This document shows positions 41,073-47,736 of a stretch of 64,000 nucleotides of DNA, in pieces. This stretch comes from an uncultured Actinomycetes bacterium (GTDB lineage: Bacteria; Actinomycetota; Thermoleophilia; RBG-16-64-13): assembly GCA_963841735.1 (NCBI GenBank), contig CAWJDT010000001.1:768001-832000 (forward strand), in the 5' to 3' direction. Under the pieces are notes generated by a model that was not told the origin of the DNA, ran no database searches, and saw only the letters and a list, made by a program, of their open reading frames with translations. The translations under genes were made by a program, and so were the position numbers. The first letter of the stretch is position 1; each line of letters starts with the position of its first letter.

Positions 41073-41514
41073 CCGGCTCAGGCCGGTGCCTGCCGACTCG
41101 GCACTCGCCGGGGTTGCCCTTTGCTTCGCTCGGGCGGCAAAAGCCTCGCTGGCAGACACCGACCTGAGCCGGCACCCTCCGCCCAGCGGCGCCGGTCCCG
41201 CGCTTCCCGCGCGGTAGATGGTTTTCGGTGAGGGGTGCCTGCCGACTCGGCACTCGCCGGGGTTGCCCTTTGCTTCGCTCGGGCGGCAAAAGCCTCGCTG
41301 GCAGACACCGACCTGAGCCGGCACCCTCCGCCCAGCGCGCCAGTCCCGTGCTTCCAGCACGGTAGATGGTTTTCGGTGAGGGGTGCCTGCCGACTCGGCA
41401 CTCGCCGGGGTTGCCCTTTGCTTCGCTCGGGCGGCAAAAGCCTCGCTGGCAGACACCGACCTGAGCCGGCACCCTCCGCCCAGCGGCGCCGGTCCCGCGC
41501 TTCCCGCATGGTAG
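41073..41514. repeat. ~2.9 tandem copies of a 148-149-bp GC-rich structured repeat
   Basis: Unit starts GGTGCCTGCCGACTCGG at 41085, 41234 and 41382; the first copy is bounded by a 20/22 inverted repeat (41073-41094 / 41151-41172). Confidence 0.95.
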
Positions 41515-41609: not shown

Positions 41610-42575
41610 ATGGACACGCCGCCAAGACTGCTCGATCAAATGCGCGAGGCACTACATGCGCGGCACTACAGCCTCCGCACAGAACGGGCCTACTGCGCCT
41701 GGGTGAGGCGCTTCATCTACTTCCACCACGTCCGCCATCCAGGTGAGATGGGGGGCCCGGAGATCAACGCCTTTCTCACTCACCTCGCGGTGGCGGAGAA
41801 CGTGAGCGCTTCGACGCAGAACCAGGCGCTGGCGGCGCTGCTCTTCCTGTACCGGCACGTACTAGACCGCGAAGTGGGCGACTTGGACGGAGTAATCCGT
41901 GCCAGGCACAGTGCCAAGGTCCCGGTGGTGATGACTCGCACCGAAGTGCGGGAGGTGCTTGCTCAACTCGCGGGCGACAAGTGGCTCATCGCCTCTCTAC
42001 TCTATGGCTGCGGGCTGCGACTACTGGAGTGCCTCCGGCTCCGGGTCAAGGACATCGACTTCTCCCGGGGCGAGATCACAGTGCACGATGGCAAGGGCGG
42101 GAAGGATCGTGTCACCATGTTGCCCGCGTCACTTGCCGATCCGTTGCAGCATCACCTTGTCTCGGTCAAGACGATCCACCAGGCCGATCTGGCCGACGGC
42201 TGGGGTCGCGTGCTCCTTCCTAACGCTCTTGATCGGAAGTACCCGAACGTGCCGGCCGACTGGCGCTGGCAGTGGGTCTTTCCCCAGGCCAACCGCTGGA
42301 AGAACAGCAGAACTGGGGAGGAAGGGCGGCATCATGTTCACGAGACCCTTGTTCAGCGCGCGGTGAAGGAGGCCGTAAGTCGCGCCGGTGTTGTCAAGCA
42401 CGTGGGGTGCCACACCTTCCGACACTCCTTCGCTACTCATCTCCTGGACGCGGGTTACGACATCCGCACGATCCAGGAACTCCTGGGCCACAAGGACGTT
42501 CGCACCACCATGATCTACACCCATGTGCTCAACCGCGGCGGCCAGGGCGTCCGCAGCCCGCTTGACTCCCTGTAG
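41610..42575 (+). CDS. intI: integron integrase (tyrosine recombinase)
   Basis: [32 protein letters not shown], IntI-specific insertion [54 protein letters not shown]; ATG 41610 gives 321 aa. Confidence 0.97.
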
Positions 42576-42677
42576 GGCGGGCATATACAGATGGGATGAG
42601 AAGGCCGACCTCCCCCGGAGTACCGTGAGGTCCCCAATCAGAGTCGGGCTCGTGGGCCCAAATGAAGGAGGCCAGCC

Positions 42678-43760
42678 ATGTGCGATGCTAGCACCACCGA
42701 GCAAGCGAAGGTGACCGTGGGTCTCGATCTGAGCGACCGTTGTTGTCAGATCTGTGTGCTCGACGAAGCGGGCGAGGTGACCGAGGAGGGCCGGGTGACG
42801 ACCAAGCCGGAAGCCTTGCGTCGCCGCTTCTCCGGGGCGGATCCGCTACGCATCGTGATCGAGGCCGGCACCCACTCCCCCTGGGTTAGCCGTCTGCTTT
42901 CCGAACTTGGACACGACGTTGTCGTGGCCAATCCCCGCAAGCTCCGCTTCATCTACCAGAACGACTCGAAGTCAGACCGGGTGGACGCCGAGTACCTGGC
43001 CCGGGTCGGTCGTCTGGACCCGGAGCTGCTGGCCCCCCTCACCCATCGGAGAGCCGAGACCCAGTCCGACCTCGCGCTTGTGCGCAGTCGCAATGCCCTG
43101 GTCAGGGCTCGCACCCGTCTGATCAGTCATGCCCGCGGCTGCACGAAGTCCTTGGGCAGCCGCCTGCCCACCTGCGCGAGCGACGTCTTTGCCCAAAAGG
43201 CCGGGCCGTGTGTCCCCGAGGAGCTTGCTCCCGCCCTGGCTCCGGTCCTCACCGTCATCCAGAACATCTCCGATGAGATCCGCGCTCTCGATCAGAAGAT
43301 CGAAGACATGGCCAAGGAGCGCTACCCAGAGACCGCGCTTCTCTCCCAGGTGCCCGGCGTGGGCACGCTTACGGCCACAGTCTATGTCCTTACCGTGGAA
43401 GATCCCGAGCGCTTCCCCAAGTGCCGCTCGGTGGGCTCGTATCTCGGCCTCAGGCCCCGGCAGGCAAGCTCCGGTTCCCTGGAGCCTCAGCTGCGCATCA
43501 CCAAAGCCGGGGACGAGCACCTGCGCTGGCTCCTCGTGAGCGCCGCCCACTACATCCTCGGGCCCTTCGGCCCGGACTCGGATCTCAGGCGTTGGGGTCT
43601 TGCCTTGGCCGCGCAGGGCGGCAAGCGGGGCAAGAAGCGAGCGGTAGTGGCGGTGGCCCGCAAGCTCTCGGTGCTCCTCCTGCACCTCTGGAGGACCGGT
43701 GAGGTCTACGAGCCACTGCGCAACGTCCGGCTCCGCGGCGAGACTGCGCCCACCACCTAG
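42678..43760 (+). CDS. IS110-family DEDD transposase/recombinase
   Basis: VGLDLS, IEAGTHS, KSDRVDA (DEDD), YLGLRPRQASSG (Ser), AVVAVARKL. Confidence 0.95.
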   Translation: MCDASTTEQAKVTVGLDLSDRCCQICVLDEAGEVTEEGRVTTKPEALRRRFSGADPLRIVIEAGTHSPWVSRLLSELGHDVVVANPRKLRFIYQNDSKSDRVDAEYLARVGRLDPELLAPLTHRRAETQSDLALVRSRNALVRARTRLISHARGCTKSLGSRLPTCASDVFAQKAGPCVPEELAPALAPVLTVIQNISDEIRALDQKIEDMAKERYPETALLSQVPGVGTLTATVYVLTVEDPERFPKCRSVGSYLGLRPRQASSGSLEPQLRITKAGDEHLRWLLVSAAHYILGPFGPDSDLRRWGLALAAQGGKRGKKRAVVAVARKLSVLLLHLWRTGEVYEPLRNVRLRGETAPTT

Positions 43761-43866
43761 GAGCGGTGAAGATGAGAGATGCCGACGGGAAGGATCGATA
43801 ACCAAGGAAGACCGGCGGGTGAACCCATCGCAGGAGACCAGCAAAAAGACCAACCGCCCAGGGTGA

Positions 43867-44027
43867 AAGCGACTGCGCACACAGACTCGGCCGTACAGAA
43901 CGACACCAACCCGGTGCCGTCCCCAAGGCCGCTATACAGATAGCAGCGCTTCCCCCCGGCCGGACCCCAACGTGCACCGGGTCCCGCCATAGGTTCCCGA
44001 CAAAAAGTGCGAATGGAAGCGTGGCCG
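43867..44027 (+). ncRNA. putative bridge/seek RNA of IS #1
   Basis: Stem-flanked internal loop GCACACAGACT / CTATACAGATA matches the target flanks; second loop ATGGAAG matches the IS right end. Confidence 0.7.
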
Positions 44028-44137
44028 TGGTCTTGGCTCTTCGCGGCGGAAGAGGGATGATAGAAACCGAGCAGAGGAGGAAGAAGCAACCCAAGAATCG
44101 CTCTTGACACCGGCCGGCTTCTCATGGAAGTCTGCAT

Positions 44138-44168
44138 AACCCCAAGACCGCGCGGGCGTCTTGGGTTC
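44138..44168 (+). terminator. hairpin, possibly the original intI terminator before IS insertion
   Basis: CCCAAGAC...GTCTTGGG stem followed by TT; lies just past the intI stop in the reconstructed empty site. Confidence 0.35.
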
Positions 44169-44221
44169 AGAAACCGCTCGGTATGCCGACCAGGGGGGCT
44201 GTCTTGAGAATCGCAGCCGGA

Positions 44222-44284
44222 GTTATGCAGACAACCTGGTGCTGCGACGGTTGAGTTGGGCAGACTGGATAAGCATTGTTAGAC
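44222..44284 (+). other. putative attI site
   Basis: R box GTTAGAC (44278-44284) is complementary to attC1 R'' GTCTAAC; upstream imperfect direct repeats GTTATGCAGAC (44222) and GTTGGGCAGAC (44255); no attC-like hairpin directly upstream. Confidence 0.7.
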
Positions 44285-44311
44285 ACAGACGCTGGGAGGC
44301 GCGCGGCGCGA

Positions 44312-45121
44312 ATGTCGTGGATGAGCGACAGCGGCACCGAGTACAGACTGTGCTTGCTCGACACAAACGCCTTGAGCAACATCGTCGAGCATCGCGACAC
44401 CTTTGGGCACGCTTTCATCGAGCGGTTTCCCCCAAGTGATTGGGCGCCATGCTGGACAATCTACAACGTCATCGAATTGCGTCGTGCCCCAGAGCATCTA
44501 CGACTATACGATGCCTGGCTCGACTTCTTCTCAAGGTATCCGAGCTTCCTTCTTGAGCCATATTCGCGCATCGTGGCGGCAGAGGTGGCGGCCTATCACC
44601 ACTATCCAGCTGGACCTCCGTTGCTCAACGCCTTCACTCTGGCTGGGTCCGAAGACAGGCACTTCCTGCGGCCGTTCCTAGAGAAGCTCTTTGTGCAGGA
44701 CTGGATGATCGAGCTTGAGGCCGGGTGGCGCGACGATGAGAATGACACCCTCCGGGAGTGGGTCTCACGTTCGAACGACGGTCGCAAAGCTGACCAGTAC
44801 GTCGCCGAGTCAGTGGTTGTTCACTTGGCCGAGAATCACCAATCTTGGACGGCGGGACTCCTGAACTCGGGTAGCACACTGGACATAAACCGATTCCCTG
44901 CGCTGCAGGCTATGCTGTATTCGCAGTTCTATCGTATTCGTGAGCCGGGGCGGGTTCATGAGGCAAGCGACGTTACGGACGTTCGGATCATGGCGGCGGC
45001 GCCCTATATGGAGGCGGTTGTCACGGAGAGGTTCCAGGCAGAGGTCTTTCGCAAGGCAAAGAGAGCGCTTTCGTCGATAGCACAGCTTGATGTCGTGAGG
45101 GTTGGTGAGTTGTGTGGCTGA
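44312..45121 (+). CDS. cassette 1: PIN-like domain protein
   Basis: CLLDTNALS at N-terminus, E in YNVIELRR, SDVTDVRIMAAAPY...VVTE at C-terminus; lower GC; stop codon just before attC1. Confidence 0.6.
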   Translation: MSWMSDSGTEYRLCLLDTNALSNIVEHRDTFGHAFIERFPPSDWAPCWTIYNVIELRRAPEHLRLYDAWLDFFSRYPSFLLEPYSRIVAAEVAAYHHYPAGPPLLNAFTLAGSEDRHFLRPFLEKLFVQDWMIELEAGWRDDENDTLREWVSRSNDGRKADQYVAESVVVHLAENHQSWTAGLLNSGSTLDINRFPALQAMLYSQFYRIREPGRVHEASDVTDVRIMAAAPYMEAVVTERFQAEVFRKAKRALSSIAQLDVVRVGELCG

Positions 45122-45129
45122 CGCTTCGT

Positions 45130-45220
45130 GTCTAACAAGTGCGTGCAACCGACACCGGCGTTGTCTGCTGCATGGAGTACCATGGCCAACGGGCGCGGCT
45201 GACGCACTAGAACGTTAGCG
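45130..45220 (+). other. attC1 recombination site (intact)
   Basis: R'' GTCTAAC, GTGCGT(G)CAACCG / CGGCTGACGCAC arms with an extrahelical base, R' GTTAGCG. Confidence 0.92.
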
Positions 45221-45255
45221 TTACAAGGGAGAGTGGGGTTCTGGTGGGGGGTCGA

Positions 45256-46323
45256 ATGATCAAGCCGAAGTCGTACATCGTAGGGTTGGGTCTGTTGCTG
45301 ACCTTGGGGGCGGCAGTCGACGGTTGCTCAGGGCGTTCCTCCGATCAAGTCACTTTCGAGAGCGAATACGTTTCTCTGCAACTGCCCGACTCGTTCGTCG
45401 GAGGCGATCCAGCGGATCCGAATGTGATGGCCGCGCTCAAGAAGCATGCCGAGAAGAACCCTGATTCCGAGACCCGTGCCGACCTCAAGTCGTACCTGGA
45501 CGGACTAGAGAGTGACATCCGAAGGGACGAGGAGTACCACTTCGTAAGGAATGGCCCTCTTCTTCTCCTCTGGGGTGAGCCGGATAAGGACGGCTCCATG
45601 GCGGAGGTCTACGTGTCGCGCGTTCTCGTGCAGAACATACTCCCGCTGACCGACGGTGACTCCTCAATGGAAGCCCTCGTGAAGGGTTTGAACTTCTGGC
45701 CAGAGTCAGAGTGGTACATCGATAATCTCACCGCTGATGCTGCGGAGGTGTTGCTCTACCATGTCAAAGAGAGTCCCGACGACATGACGGTGCGCGAACA
45801 TCATGTGTTCAAGGCCACGGCTGAGTATGTCTACGAGTTCACCTACGTCTACTACGACGAGATTTCGGCAGACCTGGACTCTGTCTTCGCCTCAAGTGCC
45901 GACACTGCTACCGTCAAGTGGCCCTACAACTCACAGAAGCAGTCTGTGGACCAGAAGGCCTACCGGCAGGATGGGGACTGCGAGTCTCTCGTCGAGAAGG
46001 CAAAGTACGCTCTAGAAAAGGCATACAAGGAACTGGGGACATGCGACCCCGGGGTGGTGACACCCAAGGTACTGAGCGAGATCGAGCCGGGTGTTGTCTT
46101 CATCGTCGTCGAGGACGCTGAAGCTGCACTTGCACCCGAAGCTGCAACCGTGCGGAATGAGGTCGCCTACTGGGGCGATGCTGGGACCTATACGGTTGGT
46201 TCGTGCTCCGAGTCTGGCAAGACGTACGGCGTATTCCATGATATGGCGGACCCTGGATGGTATCGAGTTTCCGAAGGCGGTCAGCCGGGCTCCAGGAGAT
46301 ATGAGATACCGACAGACAAGTAG
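45256..46323 (+). CDS. cassette 2: exported/lipoprotein with pilin-like C-terminal domain
   Basis: Hydrophobic N-terminus ending AVDGC; cassette ends GTTAGCGTT (45214) and AACGCTAAC (46343-46351) are perfectly complementary. Confidence 0.65.
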   Translation: MIKPKSYIVGLGLLLTLGAAVDGCSGRSSDQVTFESEYVSLQLPDSFVGGDPADPNVMAALKKHAEKNPDSETRADLKSYLDGLESDIRRDEEYHFVRNGPLLLLWGEPDKDGSMAEVYVSRVLVQNILPLTDGDSSMEALVKGLNFWPESEWYIDNLTADAAEVLLYHVKESPDDMTVREHHVFKATAEYVYEFTYVYYDEISADLDSVFASSADTATVKWPYNSQKQSVDQKAYRQDGDCESLVEKAKYALEKAYKELGTCDPGVVTPKVLSEIEPGVVFIVVEDAEAALAPEAATVRNEVAYWGDAGTYTVGSCSESGKTYGVFHDMADPGWYRVSEGGQPGSRRYEIPTDK

Positions 46324-46422
46324 CCGCCCGAAAGTGAGACTGAACGCTAACAAGATGGCATGAAAAGGACGCTGCGCCGACACTGTCGTTGTGAGGAGCA
46401 ACGATAGGAAGGAGAAGCGCCG

Positions 46423-47415
46423 ATGCCAACTTACTACCTGGGCCTCGATGTCCACAAGGTCCGCACCCAGTACTGTCTGATGGATCTGGGCGGTGAGATC
46501 CTATCCGAGGGCAATGTCCCCACCGAAGAAGCCGCGTCTCTGGTGTCCGAGATCGATTCTGCCGTGGTGCTGGAGGCCACAGGCAGCTGGCACGCCACCT
46601 ACGACGCGCTCGTCGCCACCGGAGCCGCTGTCAAGCTGGCACACCCCGCCCGCATCAAGGCCATCGCCTCCGCTAAGGTCAAGACCGACAAGATCGACGC
46701 CCGCATCCTGGCGCATCTGTTGCGTGCTGATCTCATCCCCGAGGCCTGGGCACCTCCCACTTCAGTGCGGGAACTTAGGGACCTGGTGCGGCTTCGTTGG
46801 CGCTTCATCTCCCAGCGCACCACTGCCAAGAACCGCATCACCAACCTGCTGGCCCGCGAGAACCTGCGCTTCGCCGGCACCGATCTGTTCGGCAAGAGTG
46901 GCAGGAAGTGGCTGGAGGCGCTGGATCTGCGGGCACACACCCGGAGTCTCATCGCCTTGCTGCTCGTCTCCATCGAGGAGGCCGATGCCCACGTGGCCGT
47001 TCTCACCTCTCGACTGCATGAGCTGCTCGACCGGGACCCGGACATGGGTCTGCTCATGACCATACCCGGTGTGGGTTTCATCACCGCGGCCACGCTCTCC
47101 GCCGAGGTCGGTGACTGGAGCCGCTTCTCCTCGGCAAGGCAGGTCTCCTGCTACTTCGGCATCATCCCCTCGGTGCGGAGTTCAGGTACTGTGGCCCACT
47201 ACGGACACATCACGCGGGCCGGGAGTCCTCACGCAAGGCGAGCGCTCGTCGAGGCGGCGCACACCGCCAAGAAATTGCCGGGGCCGGTCCGCCACCACTA
47301 CCTCGCTCTAGTCAAGCGTCGCGGCAAGAAGGTCGCCCTCGTCGCCGCAGCCCGTGTGCTGCTGGAACTGTCCTGGACCCTCCTGCACAAGAAGGAGGTG
47401 TTTCAGGCGGCTTAA
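46423..47415 (+). CDS. IS110-family DEDD transposase/recombinase
   Basis: LGLDVHK, LEATG, KTDKIDA, YFGIIPSVRSSG, ALVAAARVLL. Confidence 0.95.
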   Translation: MPTYYLGLDVHKVRTQYCLMDLGGEILSEGNVPTEEAASLVSEIDSAVVLEATGSWHATYDALVATGAAVKLAHPARIKAIASAKVKTDKIDARILAHLLRADLIPEAWAPPTSVRELRDLVRLRWRFISQRTTAKNRITNLLARENLRFAGTDLFGKSGRKWLEALDLRAHTRSLIALLLVSIEEADAHVAVLTSRLHELLDRDPDMGLLMTIPGVGFITAATLSAEVGDWSRFSSARQVSCYFGIIPSVRSSGTVAHYGHITRAGSPHARRALVEAAHTAKKLPGPVRHHYLALVKRRGKKVALVAAARVLLELSWTLLHKKEVFQAA

Positions 47416-47536
47416 GAGGAGAGCCCGTTGCACGCGCTGGGAGCGTGTTCGACTCCCGTTAACAAGATTCGGCCTCCTCACCGCCGCATAGCCCATCTGA
47501 GCGCCTGGATAGATGAGCGCGAATGGAAGCTTGGCC
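47416..47536 (+). ncRNA. putative bridge/seek RNA of IS #2 with attC-specific guides
   Basis: Internal loop GTTGCACGCGCT / TAACAAGAT matches both strands of the attC target; second loop CCATCT / ATGGAAG matches the circle junction. Confidence 0.8.
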
Positions 47537-47736
47537 CTCGAAGCCGTTGATGGTGGAAGGCGCGCGTTCGGGGACGGTAGAATCAAGAGCGTGCGAAGCT
47601 CAAGATGAAGACTTGCACTCTGAGTCCTTTTCATGGAAGTGCGTGCAACCGACATCCTTCATTGTCTATCGCATGGAGTACCATGGCCAACGGGCGCGGC
47701 TGACGCGCTAGAACGTTAGCCATACAGGGGGTTCTA

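Follow-up and report, generated by a model that had tools for sequence, protein, structure and literature searches.

A putatively RNA-guided IS1111 element at a conserved motif behind the integrase gene of reverse integrons in an uncultured Actinomycetes bacterium

A stretch of 64,000 nucleotides (the 64-kb window, called the window below) from the 2.82-Mb genome of an uncultured Actinomycetes bacterium (GenBank assembly GCA_963841735.1; genome G000 here) contains a chromosomal integron in which an insertion sequence (IS) of the IS1111 group, named IS-A, lies directly behind the integrase gene intI. Among the parasites of integrons, IS1111 elements are to our knowledge the best known, but only in connection with the attC sites of cassettes. 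The locus raised the question of what directs IS-A to the integrase side of the integron, and whether the non-coding region (NCR) at the 3' side of its transposase gene supplies the guide. Positions refer to the window, and features lie on the plus strand unless indicated.

The intI gene (41610-42575, with the stop codon TAG at 42573-42575) encodes an integron integrase of 321 amino acid (aa) residues, which covered profile positions 1-315 of 315 of TIGR02249 (486 bits; cut-off 265) and contained the Pfam domains Phage_integrase and Phage_int_SAM_4. The cassette open reading frames (ORFs) and attC sites downstream were all found on the plus strand; attI and the attC-bounded cassettes come after the IntI-profile integrase and share its direction. 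With intI and cassettes co-directional, the integron is of the reverse ("unusual") type, which has been described for Treponema denticola and others (PMC6557892). It belongs to a family of six integron platforms in the genome (C1:392111-392392, C1:403842-403937, C1:1356004, C5:151587-151745, C6:31559-32512 and that of the window), only two of which have an intact intI; homologous attC sites adjoin at least four of the six.

Based on the comparison of five genomic copies and one empty site, IS-A was delimited to 1538 bp (42591-44128). The core dinucleotide AG (42589-42590) starts 13 bp past the intI stop codon, and the left junction reads GCATATAC-AG/ATGGGATGAG. At the right junction, CTTCTCATGGA/AG/TCTGCATAAC, the element ends at 44128 and is followed by a second core AG (44129-44130). 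A long target duplication is absent: AG lies on each side of IS-A, and the natural empty site has a single AG. The termini (ATGGGATGAGAAGG... on the left and ...CTTCTCATGGA on the right) are accompanied by 8-bp subterminal inverted repeats, ATGAGAAG (42596-42603) and CTTCTCAT (44118-44125), which are 5 and 3 nt away from the respective ends and are kept in relatives. The transposase gene (42678-43760) encodes an IS110-family DEDD transposase of 360 aa, which is intact and 100% identical in all five copies. Its product matched PF01548 (E = 2e-17) and PF02371 (E = 1.5e-18), as well as NF033542 over profile positions 1-342 of 343 (217.7 bits; cut-off 140). The non-coding DNA amounts to 87 bp on the 5' side of the ORF versus 368 bp on the 3' side, and a long NCR 3' of the transposase gene characterizes the IS1111 group (PMC11208160; PMC11187229). 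By its domains, long 3' NCR, subterminal repeats, shared short core and guide loops, IS-A is a member of the IS110 family, IS1111 group, as the preliminary description of this DNA had proposed. Near the right end, an outward-facing -35-like TTGACA (44105-44110), which we infer to be half of a circle-junction promoter, is kept in relatives: CTTGACA was present in 20 of the 21 right-end regions compared, with CCTGGAG in its place at locus L020.

The five copies of IS-A in the genome are 99.87-100% identical, differing by 0-1 substitutions and one indel. All five lie directly behind an intI gene or its remnant, at gcatatacag-IS-agtctg(c/t)ata. The integrase genes at these occupied platforms comprise two intact ones (in the window and on contig C6, with 80% protein identity), a 65-aa remnant and two shorter remnants. 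The flanks have diverged much further, with identities of 57-90% among the 58-nt left flanks and 47-92% among the 175-nt right flanks. Near-identical copies in diverged flanks point to recent separate insertions rather than to old duplications of whole segments, and IS-A is in all probability active or was active until recently.

The sixth platform (L006) was found empty. Its sequence, GGCACATAC-AG-TCTGCATAAA (ggcacatac-AG-tctgcataaa), has one AG and one mismatch to the target, and the empty site that had been reconstructed on paper is thereby matched by a natural unoccupied copy in the same genome. No unoccupied perfect TATACAGTCTG was found in the 2.82 Mb. One-mismatch target sites numbered 15, and the right arm was intact in two of them, CATACAG and GATACAG, both of which have their mismatch in the left arm, at one shared outer position. 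When an ideal 16-mer was derived from the guides, no genomic site matched it with fewer than three mismatches; the real sites have four, all at outer positions. An off-target insertion, which had been named as an alternative, was checked in this way, and no better-matching site was present in the genome.

The target TATAC-AG-TCTG is an 11-bp, nearly palindromic motif. In the same order of bacteria, intI was present in 16 of 61 genomes, and the motif recurred 8-17 nt past the intI stop codon in 14 distinct unoccupied integrons, six of which had the perfect TATACAGTCTG. Over 21 sites (the 14 foreign ones, the five rebuilt ones, the empty one, and that of the metagenomic relative L050 described below), the consensus was GCnGCATATACAGTCTGCATA, with four invariant positions. 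Taken as a 15-mer, the target is palindromic at 12 of 15 positions in its commonest form and at 14 of 15 at the C6 copy. Since the motif is kept in unoccupied integrons, it is part of the integron and was not made by the IS. The homology among the six platforms and the 14 foreign integrons runs for about 150 bp and ends after ...AAGCATTGTT, where the cassette sequence starts. The end of homology at GTT (44278-44280), together with the onset of cassette sequence, makes this the likely attI crossover; its distance from the right core AG (44129-44130) is 149 nt.

The remaining intI-attI spacer and attI (44141-44284) carry the repeats GTTATGCAGAC (44222-44232) and GTTGGGCAGAC (44255-44265), followed by the inferred crossover GTTAGAC (44278-44284). 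On the other strand, the attI-proximal repeat gives a one-mismatch copy of the whole 11-mer, TATCCAGTCTG (44260-44270, minus strand). The core AG with the right target half-site TCTGCATAAC (44129-44140) contains an inverted copy of GTTATGCAGAC, which has exactly two perfect copies in the window, at 44130-44140 (minus strand) and 44222-44232; when up to two mismatches were allowed, no enrichment was observed in the window (13 found versus 9.5 expected). The inverted relation, which the preliminary description had noticed at this locus, held across the integron family: the mean best match of the right arm to the attI-side repeats was 8.65/11, compared with 6.6-6.7 in reversed and shuffled controls, and 11 of 20 sites reached at least 9/11, for the most part with the repeat at +91 to +94 or +124 to +127. 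Such an inverted-repeat layout fits a putative integrase-binding site. On this map, the IS-A site occupies what appears to be the intI-proximal edge of the intI-attI spacer, outside the attI simple site. The earlier placement at the intI-attI junction was supported, with the qualification that the inferred attI crossover lies about 150 bp further on.

To place IS-A among its relatives, three sets of loci were collected. A GTDB scan with one genome per species found transposase identities of 47-61% at 19 loci, and a same-order search of 61 genomes gave matches in 15, including the window's own (closest, 85-87% identical). These relatives have ends and a 3' RNA scaffold like those of IS-A, but they occupy other sites, for example repetitive extragenic palindromic (REP)-like palindromes. 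Beside the IS, no integron integrase was found at the 19 loci from GTDB or at the 19 from the same order; a tyrosine recombinase (24% identical) lies downstream at L042. A metagenome scan gave 39 loci, of which L050 was the closest (89% aa identity in the transposase). L050 is inserted 16 nt past the stop codon of another intI remnant, at tttatacag-IS-agtctgcc; the remnant is frameshifted and gave an 82% match over 28 aa. Mapping of the flanks thus bore out the expected recurrence beside intI for the five genomic copies and for L050 and not for the GTDB and same-order relatives, and the specificity of IS-A itself for the intI-attI side was upheld.

In a maximum-likelihood tree of 32 transposases (34 loci entered; L022 and L037 were dropped by the filter of a single high-scoring segment pair of at least 320 aa), IS-A and L050 were sisters with support 99/98. 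The other members of the clade that encloses them (99/94) target CTAGCAG, CTAAGAG or CCTAACAG sites, and a separate clade (99/96) sits mid-way in attC-like hairpins. With two such clades, integron-associated targets have been gained more than once in this group, and the platform-side target belongs to one small lineage, so far with two hosts.

Several of these relatives have features of their own. L018, L059, L060, L066, L081, L083 and L088, with transposase identities of 54-57%, lie mid attC-like hairpins at gcccaac...cagcggcgagcgcaagcgag-IS-agtccgctgcagcgcgttGTTAGac, and their insertion point differs from that of IS-B, the second element of the window's integron. At L027 (G031:C77; 85% identical), the 3' NCR is replaced or interrupted about 100 nt past the stop codon, and the right end was not found in the contig. 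Two IS ends only 33 bp apart at L055 suggest tandem copies at a repeated target; at L077, an inverted IS end lies directly next to a left end, and both loci suggest nested or adjacent insertions.

The predicted bridge/seekRNA core of IS-A (43856-44025) has a two-domain fold that is closed by pairs between 43856-43858 and 44023-44025. In its basal stem, AAGCGACTGC (43867-43876) pairs with GCAGCGCTT (43943-43951), and in the distal stem CGGCC (43888-43892) pairs with GGCCG (43927-43931). Between the stems lie the strands of the target loop, GCACACAGACT (43877-43887) and TATACAGAT (43933-43941), the latter being the same as 42584-42592 at the left junction. The 5' strand (43878-43887) is complementary to the right flank. 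The 3' strand, CTATACAGAT (43932-43941), contains TATACAG, the left half-site and core, followed by AT, the first two bases of the IS; positions 43933-43939 repeat the left target half-site TATAC plus core AG (42584-42590), a left junction that is the same in all five copies. A strand of the second loop, ATGGAAG (44013-44019), equals the right end ATGGA plus the core AG (44124-44130). It is kept in relatives with the same right end, and L055 has ATGGCAG with the right end CATGGC-AG. The stems, loop strands, motifs and junctions listed in the preliminary description were all found where it had placed them. For the left end no donor strand could be assigned, CCCCAAC (43966-43972) being the candidate examined.

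All relatives share the scaffold, which reads from 5' to 3' GGCGACTGCG, a 10-nt variable strand, the distal stem with its hairpin, a variable strand ending in AGAT, and GCAGCGCC; the 3' part begins with GGACCCCAAC-TGCACC and runs through a hairpin to AGAGTGCGAATGGAAGC. Among 40 relatives, the consensus fold had 20 pairs, 12 of them with compensatory changes versus 6.4 in shuffles; 94.7% of cells were paired versus 86.1% in shuffles, and none of 500 shuffles equalled the observed value. The covariation score was 0.277, compared with at most 0.074 when the partners were slid. The minimum-free-energy fold of IS-A alone gave the same target loop, an internal loop of 11+11 nt. No Rfam family matched the window at gathering scores.

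The variable strands were scored against the flanks with one extraction rule for all loci, a fixed register and unique events. Complementarity of the 5' strand to the right flank of its own element averaged 4.10 of 8 non-core positions (n = 40), compared with 2.05 in 1548 cross pairs, and at least 6/8 was reached by 12 of 35 distinct guides versus 15 of the 1548 cross pairs. For the 3' strand and its own left flank the mean was 4.33 of 7 (n = 36) versus 1.84 (n = 1228 cross pairs), with at least 5/7 in 17 of 26 distinct guides versus 20 of 1228. These fixed-register counts include mis-anchored rows (e.g., L081, L037 and L054), which depress the own-flank figures. When offsets were allowed, runs of at least 7 were found for the 5' strand in 19 of 36 guides versus 19 of 1540 cross pairs, and for the 3' strand in 12 of 26 guides versus 2 of 900. 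The sister pair illustrates the trend: the 3' guide of L050 is the same as that of IS-A, and the right guide changes together with the flank, from CACACAGACT against AGTCTGca in IS-A to CAGGCAGACT against AGTCTGCC in L050 (reverse complement AGTCTGCCtg; flank AGTCTGCCca). The covariation of guide and target that had been called for was therefore observed, and together with that of the surrounding stems it supports the reading of the loop strands in the 3' region of IS-A as guides.

The integron carries a second IS1111-type element, IS-B (46355-47637), identified by Pfam and NCBIfam matches. It is single-copy, and its transposase of 330 aa shares 33% aa identity with that of IS-A. IS-B is flanked by GCTAACA-AG-TGCGTGCAAC, the sequence of an intact sister attC at 45130-45220, and its short 3' RNA is predicted to hold two guides (47427-47438 and 47457-47469): the reverse complement of GTTGCACGCGCT agrees with the right flank at 11 of 12 positions, and for TAACAAGAT and the left junction the count is 9 of 9. 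Insertion within a cassette attC, the feature of the IS1111-attC group, is thus seen in IS-B and not in IS-A. The presence of two different elements with predicted RNA guides on one integron, as had been proposed, was thereby confirmed, with IS-A on the platform and IS-B in an attC.

Taken together, these sequence comparisons make RNA-guided homing of IS-A to the conserved post-intI motif very probable. The 3' NCR would encode a bridge/seekRNA that is presumably produced and used. One internal loop would read both halves of TATAC-AG-TCTG, with the AG core read by both strands; the 3' loop strand CUAUACAGAU carries the left half-site sequence and hence would pair with its bottom strand. The second loop, with AUGGAAG (right end plus core), would serve a circular donor, movement through a circle being likewise presumed. 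The DEDD/Ser recombinase would exchange strands at the AG core and leave one AG per side, and the element would home to the integron platform between intI and attI, not to cassette attC sites.

A number of observations weigh against this proposal. At the window's own site, the contiguous match of the IS-A 5' guide is only 6/10 (AGTCTG, then mismatches), and many guide-flank scores in the fixed register are low, owing to differences of 1-2 nt in register from one lineage to another. CCCCAAC fits the left end only in part and does not covary with left ends. The consensus fold was derived from the same alignment that was used for counting its support, and the thermodynamic z-score of the IS-A RNA, -1.15, was not significant alone (32 of 200 shuffles folded equally well). 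The occupied-junction pattern was found in none of 400 other genomes sampled from the phylum (the one hit in 401 was the window's own), and its only occurrence outside this genome was on one 1.8-kb metagenome contig. Metagenome and metatranscriptome contigs gave fragments of the element only. Among public sequencing runs, none held half of the query words (best share, 0.24), and four runs (DNA runs X1, X2 and X4; RNA library X19) yielded only short contigs 90-99% alike, none spanning a junction; neither the joint of right and left ends expected of a circle nor an empty-site joint was seen in these contigs. One X19 contig spans 43843-43977, by which transcription is not demonstrated. A separate observation concerns related elements on contigs from X1, X4 and X19: a C>T change at 43880 lies within the 5' guide, the complement of which, AGTCTGTATG, fits the integron motif better than does IS-A's own guide.

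The five occupied sites could also be explained by duplication of intI-IS-attI segments, or by gene conversion, with the match between loop and flank as a by-product. Some platform duplication did happen, since the platforms of the window and of C5 share the same first cassette and have right flanks 92% identical. The other flank pairs, however, are only 47-62% (right) and 57-81% (left) identical, against 0-1 substitutions plus one indel between the IS copies. An empty paralogous site exists, none of three same-genus genomes with full-length intI (G051, G055 and G056) carries the IS at the post-intI site, and L050, with a guide that co-varies, is inserted at this site in another integron; duplication as the general explanation is accordingly very improbable. 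It is also improbable, if slightly less so, that IS-A is an ordinary IS1111-attC element and that the stretch of about 100 bp between GTCTGCATAAC and GTTATGCAGAC represents an attC that is degenerate or lacks an ORF. The two 11-mers do resemble R''/R' core sites, an 11-bp terminal stem closes the stretch as single-stranded DNA (z = -4.89), the same transposase clade has members mid attC-like hairpins (L018, L060, L066 and others), and IS-B on the same array targets attC. The stretch nevertheless folds as a three-way junction, whereas the array's own attC forms one long imperfect hairpin. It is homologous in the six platforms and the 14 foreign integrons, always directly behind intI, and variable cassette sequence begins only past the downstream GTT. 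Moreover, the insertion point of IS-A precedes the AAC of the R''-like motif by 10 nt and that of IS-B follows it by 3 nt, and the right flank of L050 has no ATAAC motif.

A choice of target by protein or DNA structure (a palindrome, an IntI-bound site or a hairpin), with the RNA loops irrelevant or auxiliary, would agree with the palindromic 15-mer (12/15, and 14/15 at the C6 copy) and with the many family members that land in palindromic REP, attC or terminal inverted repeat sites (PMC11187229). Set against this are the loop strands, which follow flank changes over 26-36 distinct guides with mutually unrelated targets, and the redirection of insertion by loop reprogramming in tested IS1111 and IS110 members (PMC11187229, PMC11208160); this explanation is thus extremely improbable. 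Guided homing to the platform motif was retained as the preferred explanation.

The position of the target bears on the expression of the cassettes. In the unoccupied homologues L096 and L091, a promoter scan gave a single sigma-70-like site facing the cassettes, TTGACG-17/18-TACAGT, of which the TTGACG falls within conserved Pro-Leu-Asp codons of intI; this promoter-like criterion was passed by eight of the 14 unoccupied relatives. The IS enters between the G and the T of TACAGT. A promoter-like remnant is left at 42562-42591 (TTGACT at 42562-42567, an 18-nt spacer and TACAG at 42586-42590, then the A of the IS instead of T), and the same scan found no promoter-like site in the occupied interval 42450-44350. 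The genome's lexA promoter carries a canonical TATAAT -10 element. The location of the insertion suggests that IS-A splits a predicted cassette promoter. The target palindrome was also considered as a LexA/SOS box and was ruled out: the genome's lexA boxes are GAAC-N4-GTTC, and the palindrome was not seen in the lexA and recA upstream stretches examined. Away from any integron, a perfect palindrome, ATACAGTCTGTAT, which is unoccupied and differs from the IS target by one mismatch, was found at C1:441865-441880 of the same genome; it follows TTGACG-17-TACAGT, after a terminator-like hairpin judged by eye.

It is conceivable, though rather unlikely on these data, that the insertion disables the cassette promoter or serves as a reversible switch. 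The IS would then home to the -10 element (TACAG/T), which overlaps a palindrome that is an inverted copy of the attI-side repeats and is maybe bound by IntI. Insertion would separate the array from its promoter, and the transposase gene would come to lie 88 bp behind the -35/-10 that is left. Precise excision is possible for IS110-family elements and would allow an RNA-guided, reversible off-switch for whole cassette arrays. If so, five of the six platforms of this genome would be switched off.

Most of the predicted mechanism has counterparts in studied systems. In IS1111 seekRNAs, the top-strand complement lies 5' of the bottom-strand complement (PMC11187229), and the strand order in IS-A is the same as that published. 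Like IS621, in which the native pairing of the right target guide (RTG) with the right target (RT) has a length of the core plus 4 on the right (PMC11208160), IS-A has target and donor internal loops, one strand per half-site, a core read by both and a right pairing of 4 bp plus core. Unlike IS621, IS-A has its RNA 3' of the gene rather than 5', a reversed order of the target strands, longer subterminal repeats and the core AG instead of CT. Mechanistically, IS-A would seem a standard IS1111 bridge/seekRNA element, and its platform-side target is what differs.

The IS1111-attC group reportedly includes ISPa21, ISKpn4, ISPst6 and ISPa25, and is said to have been treated by Tetu and Holmes in 2008 and by Post and Hall in 2009. 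IS-A resembles this group (also Siddiquee et al. 2024) in its IS1111 anatomy, the strand order of its 3' seekRNA and orientation-specific insertion at an integron recombination-associated sequence. It differs in that it lies on the platform side, 13 bp past the intI stop codon and about 150 bp before the attI crossover, in a reverse integron; IS-B behaves like the group. In a plasmid collection of 72,556 records, home of the clinical IS1111-attC members, the best match to the IS-A transposase had 36-37% aa identity, and none exceeded 40%. There are other IS1111 members that target, in one orientation, a conserved functional site on a different mobile or recombination platform; their target class differs from that of IS-A. 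Group IIC-attC introns are another mobile class homing to integron recombination sites (PMC3001079); unlike IS-A, they are retroelement ribozymes targeting attC rather than DEDD recombinases with a bridge RNA. Among the titles and abstracts of the papers listed in literature searches, no element of the IS1111 or IS110 type with attI or the intI-attI spacer as its target was found, and the target tables of PMC11187229 and PMC11208160 might contain one.

Two further features of the integron were recorded. Directly upstream of the intI start, in the place expected for the intI promoter region, lies a tandem repeat (41085-41514) with a period of 148 bp, 2.9 copies and 96% matches. The first two cassette ORFs, 44312-45121 (270 aa) and 45244-46323 (359 aa), gave no Pfam match with E of 0.001 or below; the scan of the first ORF used its 281-aa reading, which starts at TTG 44276.

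IS-A would thus represent a lineage programmed against a conserved platform motif in reverse chromosomal integrons, a little-studied type carried by uncultured environmental bacteria, and it fills five of the six platforms in one genome. Together with its relatives, it provides a natural reprogramming series, with transposases 74-89% identical to each other and four different targets, which should be useful for deriving bridge/seekRNA rules. The element also draws attention to a conserved 15-bp palindrome with promoter-like spacing behind intI, a candidate for the cassette promoter of reverse integrons or for a binding site of their integrase. If insertion silences or immobilises the arrays, it would bear on the stability of chromosomal integrons.

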